The position numbers and the translations under genes were made by a program. Below are positions 9,345 to 63,294 of a stretch of 64,000 bases of DNA, piece after piece. A model generated the notes under the pieces. It worked only from the letters and a program-made list of their open reading frames with translations. It made no database searches and had not been told where the DNA came from. The stretch is from the NCBI GenBank assembly GCA_965230895.1, contig OZ246394.1:249316-313315 (forward strand), given 5' to 3'. The DNA is from an uncultured Gammaproteobacteria bacterium. Lineage in GTDB: Bacteria; Patescibacteriota; Microgenomatia; Levybacterales; UBA12049. Each line of letters opens with the position of its first letter. Position 1 is the stretch's first letter.

Positions 9345-9373
9345 GGGGATTCTGAAACAAGTTCAGAATGACA
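9345..9373 (-). repeat. 29-nt hairpin repeat, copy 1 (minus orientation: tgtcaTTCTGAACTTGTTTCAGAAtcccc)
   Basis: 8-bp stem attctgaa/ttcagaat with loop cttgt. One of four copies with covarying stem positions (see findings). Lies 50 nt downstream of the minus-strand gene ending at 9426. Confidence 0.8.
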
Positions 9374-9425
9374 GTTCTAGAGATTGCCGCGTCGCTTTGC
9401 TCCTCGCAATGACGGTAAGTTGATA

Positions 9426-10103: not shown

Positions 10104-11369
10104 ATGTTTAGTTTTCTTGAGAAGTTATTTAGTGCGTATCTAGCTTTTGCATTAAGTTTCATTCCTTTTGGAGGGTCACATAATCCTCCCTCTCCTACAC
10201 CCACTCCAACCCCTACAATTACATCTGCGCCAACAGTGACTTCAGTCCCAACCCTTACACTAACCCCATCTCCAACTGCTACTATGACTCCTATGCCATC
10301 ACTTACACCGACCAAAACCCCAACACCAACTATGAAGCCAACAGCTACACCTACTACATCTCCGACTGCGACATTAACACCGATGCCAAGTCCTACTGCT
10401 ACGCCCACACCGACGAAGACCCCGACTCCTACAATGACAATTTCGCCGACAGCTTCTCCGTCACCAAGTTTGACTATCACCCCGACAGCTTCTCCAAGTC
10501 CAACCATTACTGTTACTCCAACTGCCAGTCCAACTCCGACACTGACGCCAACGCCGACAGCATCAGCAACTCCCACACCGTCTCCGACTGTGACACCAAC
10601 TCCAACGCAAATCCCAACGCCGACAATCACTCGAATTGGGATTGATGTCTCATATCCACAATGTGGACGGACACTTCCATCAGGCCAAGGATTTGGGATA
10701 GTCGGAGTGAATGGAGGAATTGCATCGACCACCAATCCATGCCTTTCGACACAACTTCTTTGGGCGAAGACATCTGTCGGTACCCCGAATCAATCGCCAA
10801 TCCAACTCTATGTAAATACTGGAAATCCTGGAGGTTTGAACACTCCAACCTGGCCAAGAAATAACATTGATCCAAATGGAAATCCTACGCCAAATCCTTA
10901 TGGAACTTGTGATGGATCAGATTCTCTTGCTTGTGCGTGGCAATACGGTTGGAATCGGGCGTTAGAAGATGTTATTAGTCGGTTCACCCCGGCTGCGCAA
11001 GCTGCAGGTATTTCTACTGAACCATCGGTCTATCCTTGGTGGTTGGATGTCGAGACTGCAAACAGTTGGAAATATGGATCAGATTTTGCTTTCCAGAGTA
11101 ATCGGGCAATGCTTGAGGGAATGGTAACCTATTTTAAAGCGCGAGGAGTGAACATCGGAGTTTATTCAACGAATTATCAATGGACATTGATTATGGGAAC
11201 AGTTCCTTCAAGTAGTAATTTAGTAGGTCTTCGCAATTGGAGAGCTGGGGCTACTGATCTTGCGCAAGCGCAATCATATTGTGGGTTGGCTCCGTTGACT
11301 GCTGGATCAAGTGTCATCATGACGCAATTTGTTTTGGATAATCTTGACCACAATTACTCCTGTATTTAA
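10104..11369 (+). CDS. secreted protein with Thr/Pro-rich linker and C-terminal glycoside-hydrolase-like (GH25 / Rv2525c-DUF1906-like) domain
   Basis: N-terminal hydrophobic signal/anchor, about 150 aa of (S/T)PTPT repeats, then GIDVSYPQCG...WW...VYSTNYQW resembling lysozyme-like TIM-barrel hydrolases. TTGACA at 10068. Family assignment is tentative. Confidence 0.5.
   Translation: MFSFLEKLFSAYLAFALSFIPFGGSHNPPSPTPTPTPTITSAPTVTSVPTLTLTPSPTATMTPMPSLTPTKTPTPTMKPTATPTTSPTATLTPMPSPTATPTPTKTPTPTMTISPTASPSPSLTITPTASPSPTITVTPTASPTPTLTPTPTASATPTPSPTVTPTPTQIPTPTITRIGIDVSYPQCGRTLPSGQGFGIVGVNGGIASTTNPCLSTQLLWAKTSVGTPNQSPIQLYVNTGNPGGLNTPTWPRNNIDPNGNPTPNPYGTCDGSDSLACAWQYGWNRALEDVISRFTPAAQAAGISTEPSVYPWWLDVETANSWKYGSDFAFQSNRAMLEGMVTYFKARGVNIGVYSTNYQWTLIMGTVPSSSNLVGLRNWRAGATDLAQAQSYCGLAPLTAGSSVIMTQFVLDNLDHNYSCI
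10190..10630 (+). repeat. low-complexity PT/TP-repeat coding tract
   Basis: Repeated ccNacNccNac codons; generates a long GV-rich shadow ORF on the opposite strand. Confidence 0.8.
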
Positions 11370-12426: not shown

Positions 12427-12455
12427 TGTCATCCCGAACTTGTTTCGGGATCCCC
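12427..12455 (+). repeat. 29-nt hairpin repeat, copy 2 (tgtcATCCCGAACTTGTTTCGGGATcccc)
   Basis: Stem atcccgaa/ttcgggat; same loop and flanks as the other copies. Confidence 0.8.
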
Positions 12456-12639
12456 AATTAAACTTTATTCTTTTCTGTTCTTTGACCGCAAAGAACCAAA
12501 CTCTTCAGCAGGCAGTGCTCGCTAAAAATCTTTTCTTATTCACTAAAAGACTTTCGTCTTTCTTCACGTTCATTCGTCGGATTTTTTTAACGCTGCGCGC
12601 TGATTGCTGAACTGTCGGAGATCTTTATAGAAGTTTTTG
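12456..12639 (-). ncRNA. conserved non-coding element A, homologous to 58049-58285; immediately 3' of a minus-strand gene
   Basis: Shares ordered blocks with element B (ttgttctttgaccgcaa, accaaaSctct, cgYtaaaaatc, tttttaacgct...). Contains ctttg-accg-caaag hairpin. No ORF. Strand inferred only from position after gene stops. Confidence 0.35.
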
Positions 12640-12885
12640 CTATTGGCCGACTCGGGGATTTGTGGCAAGGATGAAGTCAATAACTTCTGAAGCAAATGTT
12701 CCTACAATTGGGACAAGGTTTACGTTCTTTGCAATGATACCTAATATATAAAAGAAAACAGCCAAACCGACTGTTGCACCCACAGCCCATGCTACTCCAC
12801 CGATAAAGTTGTTCATGATGATTTCATACCAATGAAGCCGAGTGCTGGAGCGTTCATATGGTTGCATTGGTTTGGGTTTTGCCAT
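12640..12885 (-). CDS. small membrane protein (81 aa, 2 TM)
   Basis: Hydrophobic segments FIGGVAWAVGATVGLAVFFYILGII and VPIVGTFASEVIDFILA. Confidence 0.5.
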   Translation of the reverse strand: MAKPKPMQPYERSSTRLHWYEIIMNNFIGGVAWAVGATVGLAVFFYILGIIAKNVNLVPIVGTFASEVIDFILATNPRVGQ

Positions 12886-14350: not shown

Positions 14351-14427
14351 GGTGGGCCCAAGAGAATTCGAATCTCTGACCTTTGCAATGTCAATGCAAC
14401 GCTCTAACCAACTGAGCTATGAGCCCG
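14351..14427 (-). tRNA. tRNA-Val (anticodon GAC)
   Basis: Cloverleaf readable: acceptor GGGCTCA/TGGGCCC, D-arm GCTCAGTTGGTTAGAGC, anticodon stem TTGCA/TGCAA with loop TTGACAT, T-loop TTCGAAT, discriminator A, CC encoded. Confidence 0.85.
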
Positions 14428-14488
14428 TATAAACTAATGTTTAATGTAGAAATTATAACACATTAATGAGCCTGTGATGATTGAAATC

Positions 14489-20769: not shown

Positions 20770-20853
20770 AAATCGTTTTTAGGCTAAGAAGCCCTGATGC
20801 TGGAATTGGTAGACAGGCTAGCTTCAGGTGCTAGTGTCAGTAATGGTGTGTGA
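20770..20853 (+). tRNA. tRNA-Leu (anticodon CAG)
   Basis: Acceptor GCCCTGA/TCAGGGC, anticodon stem CTAGC/GCTAG with loop TTCAGGT, long variable arm, T-loop TTCGAGT. Confidence 0.85.
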
Positions 20854-20902
20854 GTTCGAGTCTCTCTCAGGGCACATACTATCAACTATAATATAGTGTG
20901 GA

Positions 20903-20946
20903 CCTGCCTGCCGGCAGGCAGGGGTTCGACTCCTCTCTTGGGCACC
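20903..20946 (+). other. tRNA 3'-end remnant (T-arm + 3' acceptor: GGGGTTCGACTCCTCTCTTGGGCACC) preceded by a perfect 20-bp palindrome cctgcctgccggcaggcagg
   Basis: Resembles the 3' end of the adjacent tRNA-Leu(CAG) (TTCGAGTCTCTCTCAGGGCAC) with several changes; no 5' half. Typical of duplicated att-site scars left by tRNA-targeting integrases. Confidence 0.5.
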
Positions 20947-20972
20947 GAGCCAAACTCAGTTAAGAAAACAAT

Positions 20973-21055
20973 GCGGATGTGGTGAAATGGTATACACGCT
21001 ACCTTGAGGTGGTAGTGCTCGCAAGGGCGTGGAGGTTCAACTCCTCTCATCCGCA
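20973..21055 (+). tRNA. tRNA-Leu (anticodon GAG)
   Basis: Acceptor GCGGATG/CATCCGC, anticodon stem CTACC/GGTAG with loop TTGAGGT, long variable arm, T-loop TTCAACT. The last 19 nt overlap the stop-proximal codons of the convergent recombinase gene. Confidence 0.85.
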
Positions 21056-22569
21056 CTGAAGGAGAACTCCTCCGATTCGAATGCTCGAATAGACTGATAT
21101 ATCGGACTAATTGAAGTGTTGTAGTAGTCTGGATAGCCCCATCTGAGTCCCTCAGGGAAAATTGAACACAGTAAGACACGGAGCTGGCTAAGTGTAGACA
21201 TTTGGTATGTTTTTCCTAAATTTACAAATTTCTCTTTCATAAAAGTAATAATAATTTCAAGATTATATTTAGCAAGCAAAGCATCATCCTTTGTAATATG
21301 AAGAGCTGCTATTTGATCTTCAATAAGTTTATTCTGTTCTTTGAATATTTCATCTGAATAAGTTCCATTTAAATTCTTTTGTATAAGCTGTTGACGCATT
21401 TCAGAAAGTCTCTGCATCTCTTTATCTGCTTCATCTCTGCGTTTTTGTAGTTGTGCTACTCGTGCATAATAAGTTCTTCTAAGCAGTGCTATAAAAGCGT
21501 TAAGTGCTTCTTGCGTTGGTGTTATGCCTGATAAATAATGTGCAAGTTCTTTATGTGCTTTATCAGCAGAGATAGAGGTAGGTTTTGGACATTTTTGACA
21601 ACGATAGTAAGCATACTTCATACGTTTCCCTTTACTCCATCCTCCTGTCACAGGATTGCTACATCTATGGCAAATAAGTAGTCTTCGGAGTGGAAATTCC
21701 GCATTATCCTTATTTCTCCTGGTTAATGGAATATTTATATTAGTATTTCTGCCGTCAATCGCTGCCTGAACTCGATAGAAAAGAGCTTCTGATACCATTG
21801 GCAGGTGTTGTCCTTTCACTTCTTCAGGGTACTTTTCTGAGGATAGTATCCCAATATAAAATTTATTGCGAAACATTCGACTTAATGCTTGCTCTCGTAC
21901 AATATGTTTTTTCCCAGCAAAGTTTTGTCTCACTCCCCTATCATTCATTAATTTTGCCATTTCTTTTAATGTCTTTGTTCCTGTTGCCATAAGTTCCCAT
22001 GCAGCTTTTACTTTATCCCATGTTTGTGGATTTTTGACTGCATAACCATTCTCATTTTTGTATCCTAATGGCGGTGTTCCGCTCGTAAGTCCTGCCAAAA
22101 ATCGTGCTCGTAGACCGTTTTTAGTTCGCTCACTTCGTACATCATTATCCATTTGTGCAAAGCTAGCAAGCATAGACTCAATAAAGCGTTCTGTTGGTGT
22201 ATTTCCTGTTGGTTCTGAAGCTGAAAGTATCATTATGCCATAATCTGAAAGCTTTTTCCTAATGGCTAAATAGTCTTGCAACTGTCGGGATATACGATCC
22301 AATCTGTAGACAATTAAAGCATCAATATTCTGTTTGTTCTTTCTGCAATATTCCATAAGTTCCTTAAGCACAGGTCTTCCTGAAATATTTTTTGCAGATT
22401 TCCCTTCTTCTTTAAATACCTTAATAACTGTTAACCCTTTTCTTTCTGCTTCTTGCCTGCAAATTTTTTCTTGGGTTCCGAGTGAGAAATTATCTACTTG
22501 TTCTTCGCTTGAGACTCGAATATATGCAATTGATTGTTTAGTGCCTTTTGTAAAAGTTATTGATTCCAT
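21037..22569 (-). CDS. large serine recombinase (resolvase/invertase catalytic domain + recombinase domain + zinc-ribbon/coiled-coil)
   Basis: 510 aa. IAYIRVSSEEQVDNFSLGTQE (catalytic Ser motif), ...RLDRISR..., and downstream Cys pairs (CHRCSNP...CQKC). Confidence 0.85.
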   Translation of the reverse strand: MESITFTKGTKQSIAYIRVSSEEQVDNFSLGTQEKICRQEAERKGLTVIKVFKEEGKSAKNISGRPVLKELMEYCRKNKQNIDALIVYRLDRISRQLQDYLAIRKKLSDYGIMILSASEPTGNTPTERFIESMLASFAQMDNDVRSERTKNGLRARFLAGLTSGTPPLGYKNENGYAVKNPQTWDKVKAAWELMATGTKTLKEMAKLMNDRGVRQNFAGKKHIVREQALSRMFRNKFYIGILSSEKYPEEVKGQHLPMVSEALFYRVQAAIDGRNTNINIPLTRRNKDNAEFPLRRLLICHRCSNPVTGGWSKGKRMKYAYYRCQKCPKPTSISADKAHKELAHYLSGITPTQEALNAFIALLRRTYYARVAQLQKRRDEADKEMQRLSEMRQQLIQKNLNGTYSDEIFKEQNKLIEDQIAALHITKDDALLAKYNLEIIITFMKEKFVNLGKTYQMSTLSQLRVLLCSIFPEGLRWGYPDYYNTSISPIYQSIRAFESEEFSFSADERS

Positions 22570-22571
22570 GA

Positions 22572-22919
22572 TTATTTTTCGTTGAGTACTTCTTTTAGAG
22601 TCATCCCACTAAAGAGATCTTTTTCAAATTCATCGAGCCATGTATCTATAAGGAATTGAAACTCTGTAGTTACACATTGGATCTTTTCATCAGAAAAATC
22701 TTTCCCTTTTTCTCCAAACATCTTGCGCATTTTTATAACAGTATTTTCTTCTACACCATGGAAAAAGATGTCTTTCAAGCTATTTTCAAGAGGATTAAAT
22801 ATGTCGGCAGGTGGAGAGGCTATATCGGGACTTTCTTTTTGAGGAGTTTTTATATCAGAAGAAATAGAGGTTTCAAATATGGATAATTGTGGTAAGTTTA
22901 TATCTTGCATGATGTTCAA
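22572..22919 (-). CDS. hypothetical protein (115 aa), immediately upstream of and co-oriented with the recombinase
   Basis: Stop is 2 nt before the recombinase ATG. Acidic; could be a recombination directionality factor (speculative). Confidence 0.45.
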   Translation of the reverse strand: MNIMQDINLPQLSIFETSISSDIKTPQKESPDIASPPADIFNPLENSLKDIFFHGVEENTVIKMRKMFGEKGKDFSDEKIQCVTTEFQFLIDTWLDEFEKDLFSGMTLKEVLNEK

Positions 22920-23042: not shown

Positions 23043-23291
23043 ATGTCATTTTTAGGAAATGATTCTGCAAAAACTCGTGAGCTTAAGAAAGAAGATTATG
23101 CTTTAGCTGAGAAAATCCAAAGATTTCGTAGAGAAAGAGGGATGACTCAAGAAGAACTTTCTGAAAAGATAGGCAGGAATTCTTCATATATTGCTTATGT
23201 TGAAACCCATAGAAGAGGCTTAAGTTTGCCTGTTGTTTATAAACTTGCACGAGTTTTAAAAGTGAAATTGAAAGAGTTGTTTGATTTCTAG
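23043..23291 (+). CDS. XRE-family HTH transcriptional regulator
   Basis: 82 aa. RRERGMTQEELSEKIGRNSSYIAYVETHRRGLSLPVVYKLARVL. Confidence 0.8.
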   Translation: MSFLGNDSAKTRELKKEDYALAEKIQRFRRERGMTQEELSEKIGRNSSYIAYVETHRRGLSLPVVYKLARVLKVKLKELFDF

Positions 23292-31971: not shown

Positions 31972-33603
31972 ATGCTTAATCAAAACGCAGTAGCAGTAAT
32001 GCGGGTTTCCTCACAGAAGTAGGGCTTTGATGGTGATTCTATTGAGCACCAAAGAGTTCAGATTGAACTTTATGCTTCAACTCGCAACATCACGATTAAA
32101 AAATATTTCATATTAATAGAGTCAGCTGCGAAAGAACAACAACCAACACAAGAGGCTATCGAGTATTGCACAAATAAAAAGAATAACATTCAGCTTCTTA
32201 TTATTAAATCTATTGATAGATTTACTCGTGGAGGAGCCTACTTCTATGAGGATATGAAAGCGAAGCTAACAAAACATCGTGTGCAGTTAGTTGATCTCTA
32301 TGGTGTGATTAACAATCAAGAGGTTAATACGCTTGAGCATCTGGGAGTGAAGTATTCATGGAGCGTCTATAATCCAAGTAAAAAATCAGAGATCCTTGAA
32401 GCAGAACGTGGTAAGGATGAGCTACGAGATATCCTATCTCGCATGATTGGTTCTGAAGTTCGTTATACACGTTTGGGATATCGTGTTCGACAAGCACCTT
32501 TTGGATATCAGAATCAACGAATAGAAACTATACATGGAAAGCGGTTTATCCTCGTACCTCATCCAATAGAATCAGTATGGGTAAAACGAATGTTTGAATT
32601 AAAAGTTCAATCGCTTTATTCAGATCAAGAAATCGTTAAGCAAATCAATCTCATGGGTTTTAGAACAAGAAAAGTATATTTCCGTGACCCTAGAAATAAG
32701 GCACGAGCAATTGGTATAAAAGGTGGCAATCAACTAAATTTGACAAGTTTTGATAAATTCCTGCGTAATCCTATCTATACAGGGATTACTGTAGAAGTAT
32801 GGACATTGCAGAAACCTATCAAATGTCAATTTGAAGGTTTAGTTTCGATAGAAACATTTAATAAAGCAAATGCAGGGAAAGTAATGATTTTTGAAGAAAA
32901 TGGAGAATTACAAATATTAAAGGGTAAGGTTCTTAAGAAAAGAATAGTTGAAACAGCTATAAGTGTGAGATATCCTTATCGAAAGTTGGTATTGTGTAGT
33001 AATGGAAGACATCCCTTCTATGGGAGTGCTTCTCGTGGTAGAGGAAACGGTTATTTCCCTGCATATCATTGTGATACTAAAAGAAGAGCTCATTATATTC
33101 GAATTCCTGTTAAAAGATTTCATGCAGCTATTATTGACTACTTACAGAGCGTGCGCATAAAGGATGAGGCAATAGAGGAATTCCATAAAACTCTTTCCGA
33201 AAGACAGAATCTTAAGATGCATGATTCTACGTTTCAAACTACTGCAATTAAGCAAAGAGTATTGCAGATTGAAAAAGAGATTTTCCTTCTTATAGACAAA
33301 ATAAAGATGTTACATTCAGTAGTAGCACTACAAGCGCTTGAAATAGATATAGAAAAGCTGAGAGTAGAAAAAGAAGAATTACTAAAGAAGGAAAAAATGG
33401 TTGCTTTACAAAAGAAAAAAGATAATATAGCGAATAATGTTGTAGTGAGTACTCTAGACAGAATACCTGAAGATGTTATTAATGATCATAACGAAATGCT
33501 TAAAAAACAGCTTTTTGAGATGCTATTTGAAGAACTGCCGAGTTATGATGATCTTTTAAATAAAACAGCCCTTTTAAGGCCAGGATTTGAGCTAGCCTTA
33601 TAG
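31972..33603 (+). pseudogene. large serine recombinase gene interrupted by an in-frame TAG at codon 17 (position of the conserved catalytic-motif Gln)
   Basis: MLNQNAVAVMRVSSQK-TAG-GFDGDSIEHQ... aligns with IRVSSEEQVDNFSLGTQ of the intact paralog. The same frame continues 94 codons to the ATG of the 449-aa ORF (32254-33603), which carries recombinase-domain and coiled-coil regions but lacks the catalytic Ser. Confidence 0.7.
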
Positions 33604-57154: not shown

Positions 57155-58048
57155 ATGAAGCTTTTAACTACTCCTGGCTGGGAGGAATATCAATTACTGG
57201 ATACTGGTGAAGGAATGCGGCTTGAACAATTTGGAAAATATCGAATTGTTCGTCCTGATCCACAAGTAATCTGGAAACCACATCTGCCACAATCCGAATG
57301 GATGAAAGCTGATGCAATTTTTAATGTAAATGCCAAAGGTTGGGAAAATCGAACTAATGTCCCCAAGCGTTGGATGATGCATTATAAAGATTTGTCTTTC
57401 TGGGCAGAGCTTTCTCCTTTTAAACACACTGGTGTTTTTCCTGAACAATCATTGCAATGGGATTGGATGACAGAAGTTATGCAAAAAGGTGCCGTCGGAG
57501 ACGAGCCTCGCCAAAGGCGGGAAATGCGAAATAAAAAGATACTTAATCTTTTTGGTTATACAGGAATTGCAAGTTTGGTCGCGGCCAAGAATGGTGCGCA
57601 AGTAACACATGTGGACGCTTCTAAGCCAACAATCGGTTGGGCAAAACAAAACCAATCAGTGTCAAAGCTTGAAGACAAACCGATCCGATGGATTCTCGAT
57701 GATGCTGTGAAATTCGTTCAGCGTGAAATAAAGCGAGGAGTGAAATACGATGGTATTATCATGGATCCACCTGTGTACGGACACGGACCAAATGGTGAGA
57801 AATGGGAATTTACAGAGTCGTTCCCTCATTTGCTTTCACTGTGCAAGCAAATACTTGCAGACAAACCGCTTTTTGTTTTAATTAATGCCTATGCGATTTC
57901 TGCATCTTCGCTTATGCTTGAGAATGTGCTTAAAGATTTTGTGCCGACAGCCAAGCAAAATATTGAAGTTGGAGAATTGATTATAGAAGAAAAGGATTCA
58001 AATAGATTGCTATCTACAGGCATTTTCGGACGTTGGAGTTCAGTTTAA
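57155..58048 (+). CDS. class I SAM-dependent (rRNA) methyltransferase, RlmI/RlmK-like
   Basis: LNLFGYTGIASLVAAKNGA (SAM-binding motif I) and IIMDPPVYG (DPP[FY] motif IV). Confidence 0.65.
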   Translation: MKLLTTPGWEEYQLLDTGEGMRLEQFGKYRIVRPDPQVIWKPHLPQSEWMKADAIFNVNAKGWENRTNVPKRWMMHYKDLSFWAELSPFKHTGVFPEQSLQWDWMTEVMQKGAVGDEPRQRREMRNKKILNLFGYTGIASLVAAKNGAQVTHVDASKPTIGWAKQNQSVSKLEDKPIRWILDDAVKFVQREIKRGVKYDGIIMDPPVYGHGPNGEKWEFTESFPHLLSLCKQILADKPLFVLINAYAISASSLMLENVLKDFVPTAKQNIEVGELIIEEKDSNRLLSTGIFGRWSSV

Positions 58049-58285
58049 TTTCTTTTTGTTCTTTGACCGCAATTCTTTTCTTGTGCTTTGTGCCGACAAA
58101 GTACCAAAGCTCTGCCTGTCGGCAGACAGGTCTTCGGCTAATCAGTACTCGTTAAAAATCATTTCTATTCCCGCTAAAGGACACGTTTCGCGATCGCTTC
58201 ACTTGCTGTCCTTTTTAACGCTTCATTCCAATGGTTTTCTTAACACTCCGTTCTGAGCGCCGAATCAATTAATTTATTAATATCA
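58049..58285 (-). ncRNA. conserved non-coding element B, homologous to 12456-12639; immediately 3' of obgE
   Basis: Same ordered sequence blocks as element A (ttgttctttgaccgcaa...accaaagctct...cgttaaaaatc...tttttaacgct...). Contains cctgtc-ggca-gacagg and ctttg...caaag hairpins. The 66-aa plus-strand ORF here is probably spurious. Confidence 0.35.
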
Positions 58286-59371
58286 TTAATAACGTCGTTT
58301 TTTTGGTGGGGGTGGGGTTTTGTAGAGATTTTCTATTGGGAACTTTTTAAATTTCTCAGTTCTTTCAACAATTGGTTCCTTAAATTCTTCTAATGCATGA
58401 ACGCGTTGTTTCAATGTGTTGAGACTCTCGTCATCATAAATAGAGCATGTGATGACTTCCAAACCTTTCTTGAGGAAAAGCTTTTCAGATTTCTCAACTT
58501 GTCCAACTGCTGCAAGATCTGTTTTGGTAAGTAGGATAACTTCTTGCTTCTCTAAAAGTTTGCCACTATGTTGTTCAAATTCTTTTCGGACGATTGTATA
58601 TGTTTTCAAAGGATCAGGATCTGTTGAATCGATACAATGAAGGAGGATTTTTGTTTTCTCAATATGTTTTAGAAAAGCAATTCCTAAACCTTTCCCCTGC
58701 GATGCGCCTTCAATAAGTCCAGGAATATCTGCAATTGTATATTCATCAAGCATACCGATATTTGGTTCAAGCGTTGTAAAAGGATAGTTACCGATCTTTG
58801 GGGATGCATTTGTTAATGTCGCAAGTAAACTACTCTTCCCTGCATTTGGTAAACCAATTAATCCAATATCCGCAATCATCTTTAGCTCTAGTTTGAGCAT
58901 TTTTTCTTCGCCGGGTGTTCCATCTTCTGCATAATTTGGGGATTGGTTGATTGCTGTTTTGAATTCAGTATTACCACGTCCACCTTTCCCACCTTTTGCA
59001 AAGAGCACAGGTTTGCTGTCATTTCGAATCTCGTAGATTCTTCCAGTATCAATATCAGTAATATGTGTGCCAAGTGGAACTAGTATTGTTAAGTCTTCTG
59101 CATTTTTACCGAAGAGTTTCTGATTCTTCCCATTTGTTCCGTTTTGCGCTTCAACCTTTTTCTTAAATCGGAACTGTTTGAGATCATTTATATTTCGTGA
59201 ACCTTGGAAATAGACATTTCCTCCATTCCCACCATTTCCTCCATCAGGTCCACCTCGAGCGGTTAATCCATTGCGCAAAAAAGTTGCGGCGCCATTACCA
59301 CCGTCTCCTGCTTTGATTGTAAGTGTGACATTATCAACTAACATAAGTGTATTATACCTCACTTGAGGCAA
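58286..59371 (-). CDS. obgE: GTPase ObgE/CgtA
   Basis: Gly-rich Obg fold (KAGDGGNGAATF...GGPDGGNGGNGGNVYF), G1 GLPNAGKSSLL, Lys-rich C-tail. Confidence 0.9.
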   Translation of the reverse strand: MPQVRYNTLMLVDNVTLTIKAGDGGNGAATFLRNGLTARGGPDGGNGGNGGNVYFQGSRNINDLKQFRFKKKVEAQNGTNGKNQKLFGKNAEDLTILVPLGTHITDIDTGRIYEIRNDSKPVLFAKGGKGGRGNTEFKTAINQSPNYAEDGTPGEEKMLKLELKMIADIGLIGLPNAGKSSLLATLTNASPKIGNYPFTTLEPNIGMLDEYTIADIPGLIEGASQGKGLGIAFLKHIEKTKILLHCIDSTDPDPLKTYTIVRKEFEQHSGKLLEKQEVILLTKTDLAAVGQVEKSEKLFLKKGLEVITCSIYDDESLNTLKQRVHALEEFKEPIVERTEKFKKFPIENLYKTPPPPKKRRY

Positions 59372-61292: not shown

Positions 61293-61321
61293 TGTCATCC
61301 TGAACTTGTTTCAGGATCTCC
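61293..61321 (+). repeat. 29-nt hairpin repeat, copy 3 (tgtcATCCTGAACTTGTTTCAGGATctcc)
   Basis: Stem atcctgaa/ttcaggat; same loop and flanks. Confidence 0.8.
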
Positions 61322-63266: not shown

Positions 63267-63294
63267 GGGATGCTGAAACAAGTTCAGCATGACA
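63267..63294 (-). repeat. 29-nt hairpin repeat, copy 4 (minus orientation: tgtcATGCTGAACTTGTTTCAGCATccc)
   Basis: Stem atgctgaa/ttcagcat. Lies 8 nt downstream of the stop of the minus-strand gene 63302-63808. Confidence 0.8.

Follow-up and report, generated by a model that had tools for sequence, protein, structure and literature searches.

Two puzzlingly long spacers, one ending at the gene of an 81-aa DUF5665 protein and the other at obg, are found in the window, that is, in the whole 64,000-nt stretch of DNA analysed here. Both contain similar non-coding segments, and both of the genes they face are encoded on the minus strand. The question is what such segments are. The first-pass annotation had suggested a 3'-UTR structure or a 3'-UTR-derived small RNA common to the two genes or, alternatively, a decayed repeated element. 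The segments could also represent a free-standing RNA gene, fragments of a coding sequence, or DNA inserted independently at two sites. The proteins encoded in the window place it in Levyibacteriota, a lineage of the candidate phyla radiation, and the comparison was made with loci from related genomes of this group.

Two homologous segments in the window

Local alignment of the regions 12440-12645 and 58040-58295 gave a score of 69, far above the maximum for shuffled sequences (34; n = 500, mean 19.2, standard deviation 2.9) and above the reverse-complement control (21). In nhmmer searches, A recovered B and B recovered A. Thus, the two segments, hereafter copies A and B, are homologous beyond chance, in agreement with the first-pass annotation.

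The blocks accaaa(c/g)ctct, cg(c/t)taaaaatc, ctaaa(a/g)ga and tttttaacgct, which had been listed as common to both segments, are all found. One correction is needed: the best partner of the tttttaacgct block of A is the second ttttcttaacact block of B (58246-58258), and not the first one. The 17-mer ttgttctttgaccgcaa is present exactly at 58056-58072 and with one mismatch at 12475-12491, the chance expectation being 0.04 matches. The small hairpins described earlier are also real features of the sequence, ctttg..caaag being present in both copies and cctgtc-ggca-gacagg in B. The coordinates are collected in Table 1.

Table 1. Copies of the element, their parts and flanks, and the adjacent small repeats. 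Positions are those of the window unless a locus from a related genome is named.
Feature	Position	Strand	Description	Basis
Copy A, 162 nt	12462-12623	+ (orientation used)		homology to B, C, D; covariance model 135.8 bits
Left TTAA of A	12458-12461		also ends the adjacent hairpin repeat, as the last 4 nt of its tail, CCAATTAA	sequence
Right TTTA of A	12624-12627		read as a degenerate copy of TTAA	alignment with the empty site in L036
Native spacer at A	12628-12639		precedes the CTA stop at 12640-12642	aligns with the empty site in L036
Hairpin 1 of A	12477-12496		GTTCTTTG-ACCG-CAAAGAAC	folds on both strands
Long imperfect palindrome of A	12504-12611		arms 12504-12530 and 12580-12611; inner hairpin 12545-12561	predicted fold
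Hairpin repeat left of A	12428-12452	+	GTCATCCCGAACTTGTTTCGGGATC; separate family, outside the element	four copies in the window, covarying stems
Copy B, 237 nt	58049-58285		fills the whole gap between the convergent methyltransferase and obg stops	covariance model 158.6 bits
Left TTAA of B	58045-58048		contains the methyltransferase stop TAA, 58046-58048 (plus-strand gene)	sequence
Right TTAA of B	58286-58289		contains the obg stop (TTA on the plus strand), 58286-58288	sequence
B1, extra truncated A-type left end	58049-58072		T-rich leader, 5' arm and loop of hairpin 1, then CAA	exact 17-mer in common with A
Hairpin 1 of B	58083-58104		GTGCTTTGT-GCCG-ACAAAGTAC, one G·T pair	predicted fold
Extra hairpin, B only	58115-58130		CCTGTC-GGCA-GACAGG	part of 20-21 inserted nt that C and D lack
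Long imperfect palindrome of B	58133-58264		arms 58133-58163 and 58230-58264; inner hairpin 58176-58214	predicted fold
Copy C	L004 5962-6134		between TerC-like and DUF4385 genes	
Copy D	L043 3904-4085		between an M20 peptidase gene and tRNA-Val	
Copy E	L042, same locus as D		cut off by the contig end	
Hairpin-repeat family	9348-9372; 12428-12452; 61294-61318; 63269-63293	-; +; +; -	GTCATYCTGAAC-TTGT-TTCAGRATC	stems covary between copies
Second palindromic module	9383-9413; L043 4094-4124	-; -	GTCATTGCGAG...CGGCAATCTC; beside hairpin-repeat copy 1 and beside copy D, respectively	

Copies in related genomes and empty sites

Searches with nhmmer and a covariance model yielded three further copies (C, D and E) in relatives, so that five copies are known, distributed over four loci and four genomes. 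Apart from A-E, no copy was found in approximately 540 kb of the window and related loci, either by nhmmer or by the covariance model (R1), and in this DNA the family is therefore rare. There were no matches to two conserved-block patterns in JGI metagenome contigs, and none to both patterns and the 24-mer of hairpin 1 in the viral contigs of IMG/VR. So far, the element is known only from a genus-level group of Levyibacteriota. The record containing L004 and L036 (CAZDOJ010000001.1) is titled "uncultured Gammaproteobacteria"; its gene order and proteins match the window and Levyibacteriota, and the label is probably wrong.

The sites occupied in one genome tend to be free in another. At the site of A, the spacer of both L036 and L037 is 63 nt long and contains one TTAA and no element. 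A single TCAATTAA in L036 takes the position of the left TTAA of A, and at the right junction ATAGAAGTTTTTG of the window aligns with ATAAAGTGTAGAT of the empty site. The case of B is even simpler: in L004, whose Obg is 87% identical to that of the window, the overlapping ends of obg and of the convergent methyltransferase gene share one TTAA and leave no spacer, and the window has TTAA-B-TTAA instead. The window has no element at the D/E locus (14427-14488), and in L036 this locus retains only a stump of approximately 33 nt from the left end, cut three nucleotides into the 3' arm of hairpin 1. The C locus of the window carries only the hairpin repeat, so in this case there is no truly empty site for comparison. 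Thus, empty orthologous sites are observed for the A, B and D/E loci, the intergenic sites that carry copies differ from genome to genome, and the element is inserted DNA.

All four full copies are situated between direct repeats of TAA, often TTAA, unambiguously so only for B, as the right repeat of A is degenerate (TTTA) and the left flank of D lies among other inserted repeats. The flanks of C are aTAA on the left and TTAA on the right; those of D are cTAA on each side, the native TAATGAG being present also at the empty site of the window. T(T)AA occurs on the left flank of all left ends (6/6); the TAA on the right may be attributed either to the element or to duplication of the target. The flanking repeats often overlap or adjoin a stop codon. 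B, in particular, abuts two of them, that of obg and that of the plus-strand methyltransferase gene, and shows that the element can land precisely on a stop-codon TAA/TTAA even between genes with overlapping stops. The earlier statement that each segment starts at the stop codon of a minus-strand gene is true for B, and not for A, whose right end is separated from the stop of the DUF5665 gene by approximately 16 nt.

These observations bear directly on the suggested role in the 3'-UTR, according to which the minus-strand RNA would form a structured tail that stabilizes, terminates or regulates the mRNA, or is processed into a small RNA. At all four loci the right end faces the stop of an incoming gene (DUF5665, obg, DUF4385, M20 peptidase), which speaks for this explanation; however, only the A and D/E loci are informative about orientation, B and C being located between convergent genes. 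Further, the tail is not syntenic, since the same obg and DUF5665 genes in the close relative represented by L004 and L036 have no tail after them, other copies are adjacent to unrelated genes in other relatives, and the truncated stump in L036 demonstrates that at that locus the structure is dispensable.

Conserved fold

A common fold is observed in all four full copies. It starts with a T-rich leader and continues through hairpin 1 (8-9 bp) and the linker CCAAAG to a long imperfect palindrome, inside which lies an inner hairpin. Compared to shuffled sequences, the folding z-scores range from -2.1 to -3.8 on the plus strand of the window and from -1.5 to -2.8 on the other strand.

In the covariance-model alignment, 88.5% of stem cells pair, as opposed to 39-52% when the partners are slid, and both-sided changes are seen in eight pairs, the level reached by none of 500 shuffles, although the alignment was fitted to the structure and comprises five sequences, four of them full, so that the covariation statistics are modest. 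In the manually compiled helix table, 159 of 175 cells (approximately 91%) are Watson-Crick pairs and ten positions have undergone compensatory change, for example, from CAG/CTG to TAG/CTA and from GGAC/GTCC to GTTC/GAAC. Position 3 of hairpin 1 is a T-A pair in A, an A-T pair in C, D and E, and a G·T pair in B. Thus, compensatory substitutions maintain the fold. Of the "decayed repeated element" of the first-pass annotation, therefore, the repeat is retained and the decay is not.

The stem mismatches comprise five G·T and six A·C, and since these counts are balanced, neither strand appears to be favoured. Such a balance would not be expected of a strand-specific RNA, which is a further argument against the 3'-UTR role, whereas conservation of the fold with compensatory changes by itself agrees with it.

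Copy B starts with B1, an additional truncated left end which has no counterpart in C and D. Both B1 and the stump at the D locus of L036 (9002-9033) are cut three nucleotides into the 3' arm of hairpin 1, and this common position may be a preferred breakpoint.

Coding capacity, known RNAs and signals

No reading frame, in any of the six, is open in all four full copies (A-D), and the 66-aa ORF of B (58056-58256) is unique to this copy, in line with the earlier opinion that neither segment has a credible ORF. A six-frame peptide query made of the concatenated translations of A-D, intended to reveal spurious ORFs annotated on further copies, found nothing at E <= 1 among 5.8 billion proteins. 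If the segments were remnants of a pseudogene, one could explain why some blocks of A and B are in the same minus-strand frame, e.g. SVKK and AVKEQK; however, most copies have stops in every frame, no protein relative was found by the above query, and the substitutions follow base pairing rather than codons. We regard such an origin as scarcely credible.

The scan of the whole window against Rfam at the gathering score, a check which had also been proposed, yielded only eight tRNAs and left the element unmatched. When the surroundings of A, B, C and D were scanned permissively, no hit was better than E of about 2, and the families without a match included IS605-associated RNAs, the hammerhead and other small ribozymes. 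Copies A and B contain no sigma-70-like promoter and no intrinsic terminator, as hairpin 1 is not followed by a T-run on either strand. A hammerhead ribozyme was considered because of CTGATGAG...CGAA on the opposite strand of C, and rejected, as this motif is not conserved in A, B and D and Rfam is silent. An integron attC site was rejected as well: in attC the arms have the R''/R' order, and the GTT...AAC arms seen here have the wrong one.

A free-standing structured RNA gene, for instance a new ribozyme or a regulatory RNA duplicated by chance, would account for the conserved multi-helix fold, which on the plus strand is better than that of shuffled sequences (z-scores as above). It would not be expected to lack a promoter-like site and any Rfam match, to vary in position, to occur in only some of the close relatives, to have wobble pairs with no strand bias, or to carry its hammerhead-like motif in C and not in A, B or D. 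Hence this possibility seems very unlikely.

For the 3'-UTR role, the absence of a terminator-like hairpin with a T-run on either strand, and of a promoter-like site in A and B, adds to the evidence from empty sites. It is known that transcripts of MITEs form stable stem-loops and can have a regulatory effect (PMC10969869), which speaks for such a role. On balance, we consider a primary function in the 3'-UTR unlikely, and this role survives only as a possible side effect of insertion.

Inspection of all ends revealed no terminal inverted repeats: the left ends (TTATTC..., TTTCTTT..., ACTTTATTC...) do not match the reverse complement of the right ends (TGACTTTC, TGATATTA, GATCTCCG, GTTCTGCA), and the only long inverted repeat is internal. 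Thus, the possibility, mentioned in the first-pass annotation, that both copies are remnants of an IS or MITE bounded by terminal inverted repeats is half right: insertion and short flanking direct repeats are observed, and the terminal inverted repeats are not.

Adjacent small repeats

The hairpin repeat said to cap A was located immediately to the left of this copy. In A, D and E it sits on the left in the same orientation, and A and E share an identical junction, CCAATTAA followed by the element. Nevertheless, the two do not form one composite unit, an option that we rejected: at the A locus they are situated on opposite sides of the native TTAA and, therefore, are separate insertions.

Comparison with L004 shows that the copy of the hairpin repeat at 61294 was inserted. 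The exact 25-mer of this repeat was found in 33 IMG/VR contigs with GC content from 28% to 71%, and thus the repeat is cosmopolitan across very different genomes. It is absent from Rfam, and a literature search by its sequence string found no paper. Small palindromic units tend to cluster, the second module being adjacent both to a hairpin repeat and to copy D.

Two other repetitive regions were noted. The 421-aa ORF at 10104-11369 has a long Pro/Thr-rich region built from degenerate repeats whose spacing is a multiple of 6 nt, in most cases 12-24 nt. In L043 (6335-6400), the heptamer AGACTTC is repeated approximately seven times in tandem directly after the DUF5665 stop, and a shorter version is present in L042.

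Candidate mobilizing enzymes

Neither an autonomous partner nor a transposase was found in the visible DNA, approximately 64 kb of this genome and 41 kb of the closest relative, and no copy adjoins a transposase gene in the approximately 540 kb examined. One related Levyibacteriota genome encodes a Y1 transposase (L039 778-1452; PF01797, 224 aa), whose gene is flanked by inverted repeats of approximately 35 nt in the style of REP-associated transposases. We rejected its link to the element, as these flanking repeats are unrelated to it.

The window itself contains serine recombinase ORFs at 21037-22569 and 32254-33603, and nothing connects them to the element. The first, a 510-aa protein with Resolvase, Recombinase and zinc-ribbon domains, adjoins two tRNA-Leu genes; this region (20791-22919), close to which there is a small HTH gene (23043-23291), may be an integrated element. 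In the second ORF (449 aa) only the Recombinase domain (PF07508) matches, and the resolvase catalytic domain is lacking.

With these data, one may consider a palindrome-associated single-stranded DNA element derived from IS200/IS605, which would insert 3' of T(T)AA with no duplication, carry TAA as its own right end, and have hairpins bound by a Y1 (HUH) transposase. The lack of terminal inverted repeats is in accordance with this scheme, as is the position of a hairpin 7-17 nt from the flanking T(T)AA in 6/6 left ends; conservation of pairing rather than of sequence, with no strand favoured, is what DNA hairpins would show, and the L039 gene demonstrates that Y1 transposases exist in a related genome. 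At the same time, IS608-type elements have similar hairpins at both ends, while here no hairpin resembling hairpin 1 is seen at the right end. The inverted repeats around the L039 gene and the Rfam scans do not agree with this scheme either, and a 3-bp target-site duplication would account just as well for the TAA on both sides. Taken together, derivation from IS200/IS605 seems rather improbable.

Discussion

In our opinion, A and B probably belong to a lineage-restricted, non-autonomous, structure-dependent dispersed repeat, similar to MITEs while lacking terminal inverted repeats, and mobile rather than a part of the 3'-UTR. If so, its mobilization would depend on an enzyme that acts in trans, is encoded at some other place in the genome, and inserts the element at TAA/TTAA. 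As the conservation of pairing is symmetrical and the ends lack inverted repeats, this enzyme probably recognizes folded DNA, which could be either single-stranded or a cruciform, since neither strand is favoured. Copies would survive mainly at 3' ends of genes, as insertions there should be harmless in compact genomes. After insertion, the transcript of the upstream gene would likely include the element as a structured 3' tail, any stabilizing or insulating effect being a by-product. The element is probably selfish.

A bolder version is that mobilization depends on reading the fold and not the termini, either by a single-stranded DNA system of the HUH type or by an RNA-guided recombinase system in which the non-autonomous element has kept just its structured non-coding part, much like a lone guide or bridge RNA module, with TAA/TTAA at stop codons and beside the cosmopolitan hairpin repeat as targets. 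We consider this version speculative and do not expect it to hold; if true, the reduced genomes of the candidate phyla radiation would harbour non-autonomous elements of a new type. More generally, if the mobilizing enzyme recognizes the fold, the family could serve as a compact model for structure-guided DNA insertion.

The mobile DNA of the candidate phyla radiation, whose genomes are small and densely packed, is little known; our literature search found no paper on comparable elements in these bacteria. The element shows that in this group even close relatives differ by gain and loss of small structured repeats. It also explains two long spacers and cautions against annotating the 66-aa ORF of B as a gene or a 3'-UTR RNA at that place.

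Comparison with known repeat classes

MITEs are defined as non-coding, AT-rich, intergenic elements shorter than 500 bp, with short direct repeats and stable stem-loops (PMC10969869). Prokaryotic examples, such as Correia/NEMIS of Neisseria, RUP of pneumococcus and QMITE of Coxiella, resemble the element in size, lack of coding capacity, AT-rich intergenic location, direct repeats, presence/absence pattern and stem-loops, the element being 162-237 nt long with no coding capacity, flanked by direct repeats, and dispersed with variable presence. It differs from them in that the inverted repeat is internal, there being no terminal ones of about 4-30 bp, no partner IS was found in the DNA examined, and the copy number is very low. 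In the absence of terminal inverted repeats, the usual model of MITEs mobilized by DDE transposases fits imperfectly.

The 3-bp target-site duplication TAA/TNA is characteristic of the IS1031 group of the IS5 family and of Tourist-like MITEs, which belong to the related PIF/Harbinger transposons of eukaryotes, and all four full copies of the element are likewise situated between TAA repeats. On the other hand, terminal inverted repeats are clear in those elements and absent here, and the DNA examined yielded no IS5-like transposase. Like the element, PATEs, which derive from IS200/IS605, lack terminal inverted repeats and have a subterminal hairpin and a short conserved motif on the left flank; in contrast to them, the two ends of the element have no similar hairpins, hairpin 1 being present on the left only, and neither a relative of tnpA/tnpB nor a match to an associated RNA family was found.

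Finally, REP/BIME and the pneumococcal BOX and SPRITE repeats are not known to have any sequence in common with the element. REP units are GC-rich palindromes of 20-40 nt, have high copy numbers, and are associated with RAYT genes. The element is much longer (approximately 170 nt) and not GC-rich (40-45%, with 38% for the window as a whole), and no associated RAYT gene is seen, as the only Y1 gene observed, that of L039, has unrelated repeats. On the other hand, REP/BIME, BOX and SPRITE are also intergenic, usually situated at 3' ends of genes, defined by structure and devoid of terminal inverted repeats. The element is modular and often located beside other small palindromic units, such as the hairpin repeat adjoining A, D and E. 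Thus, the element is a new entry in the class of small structured dispersed repeats.
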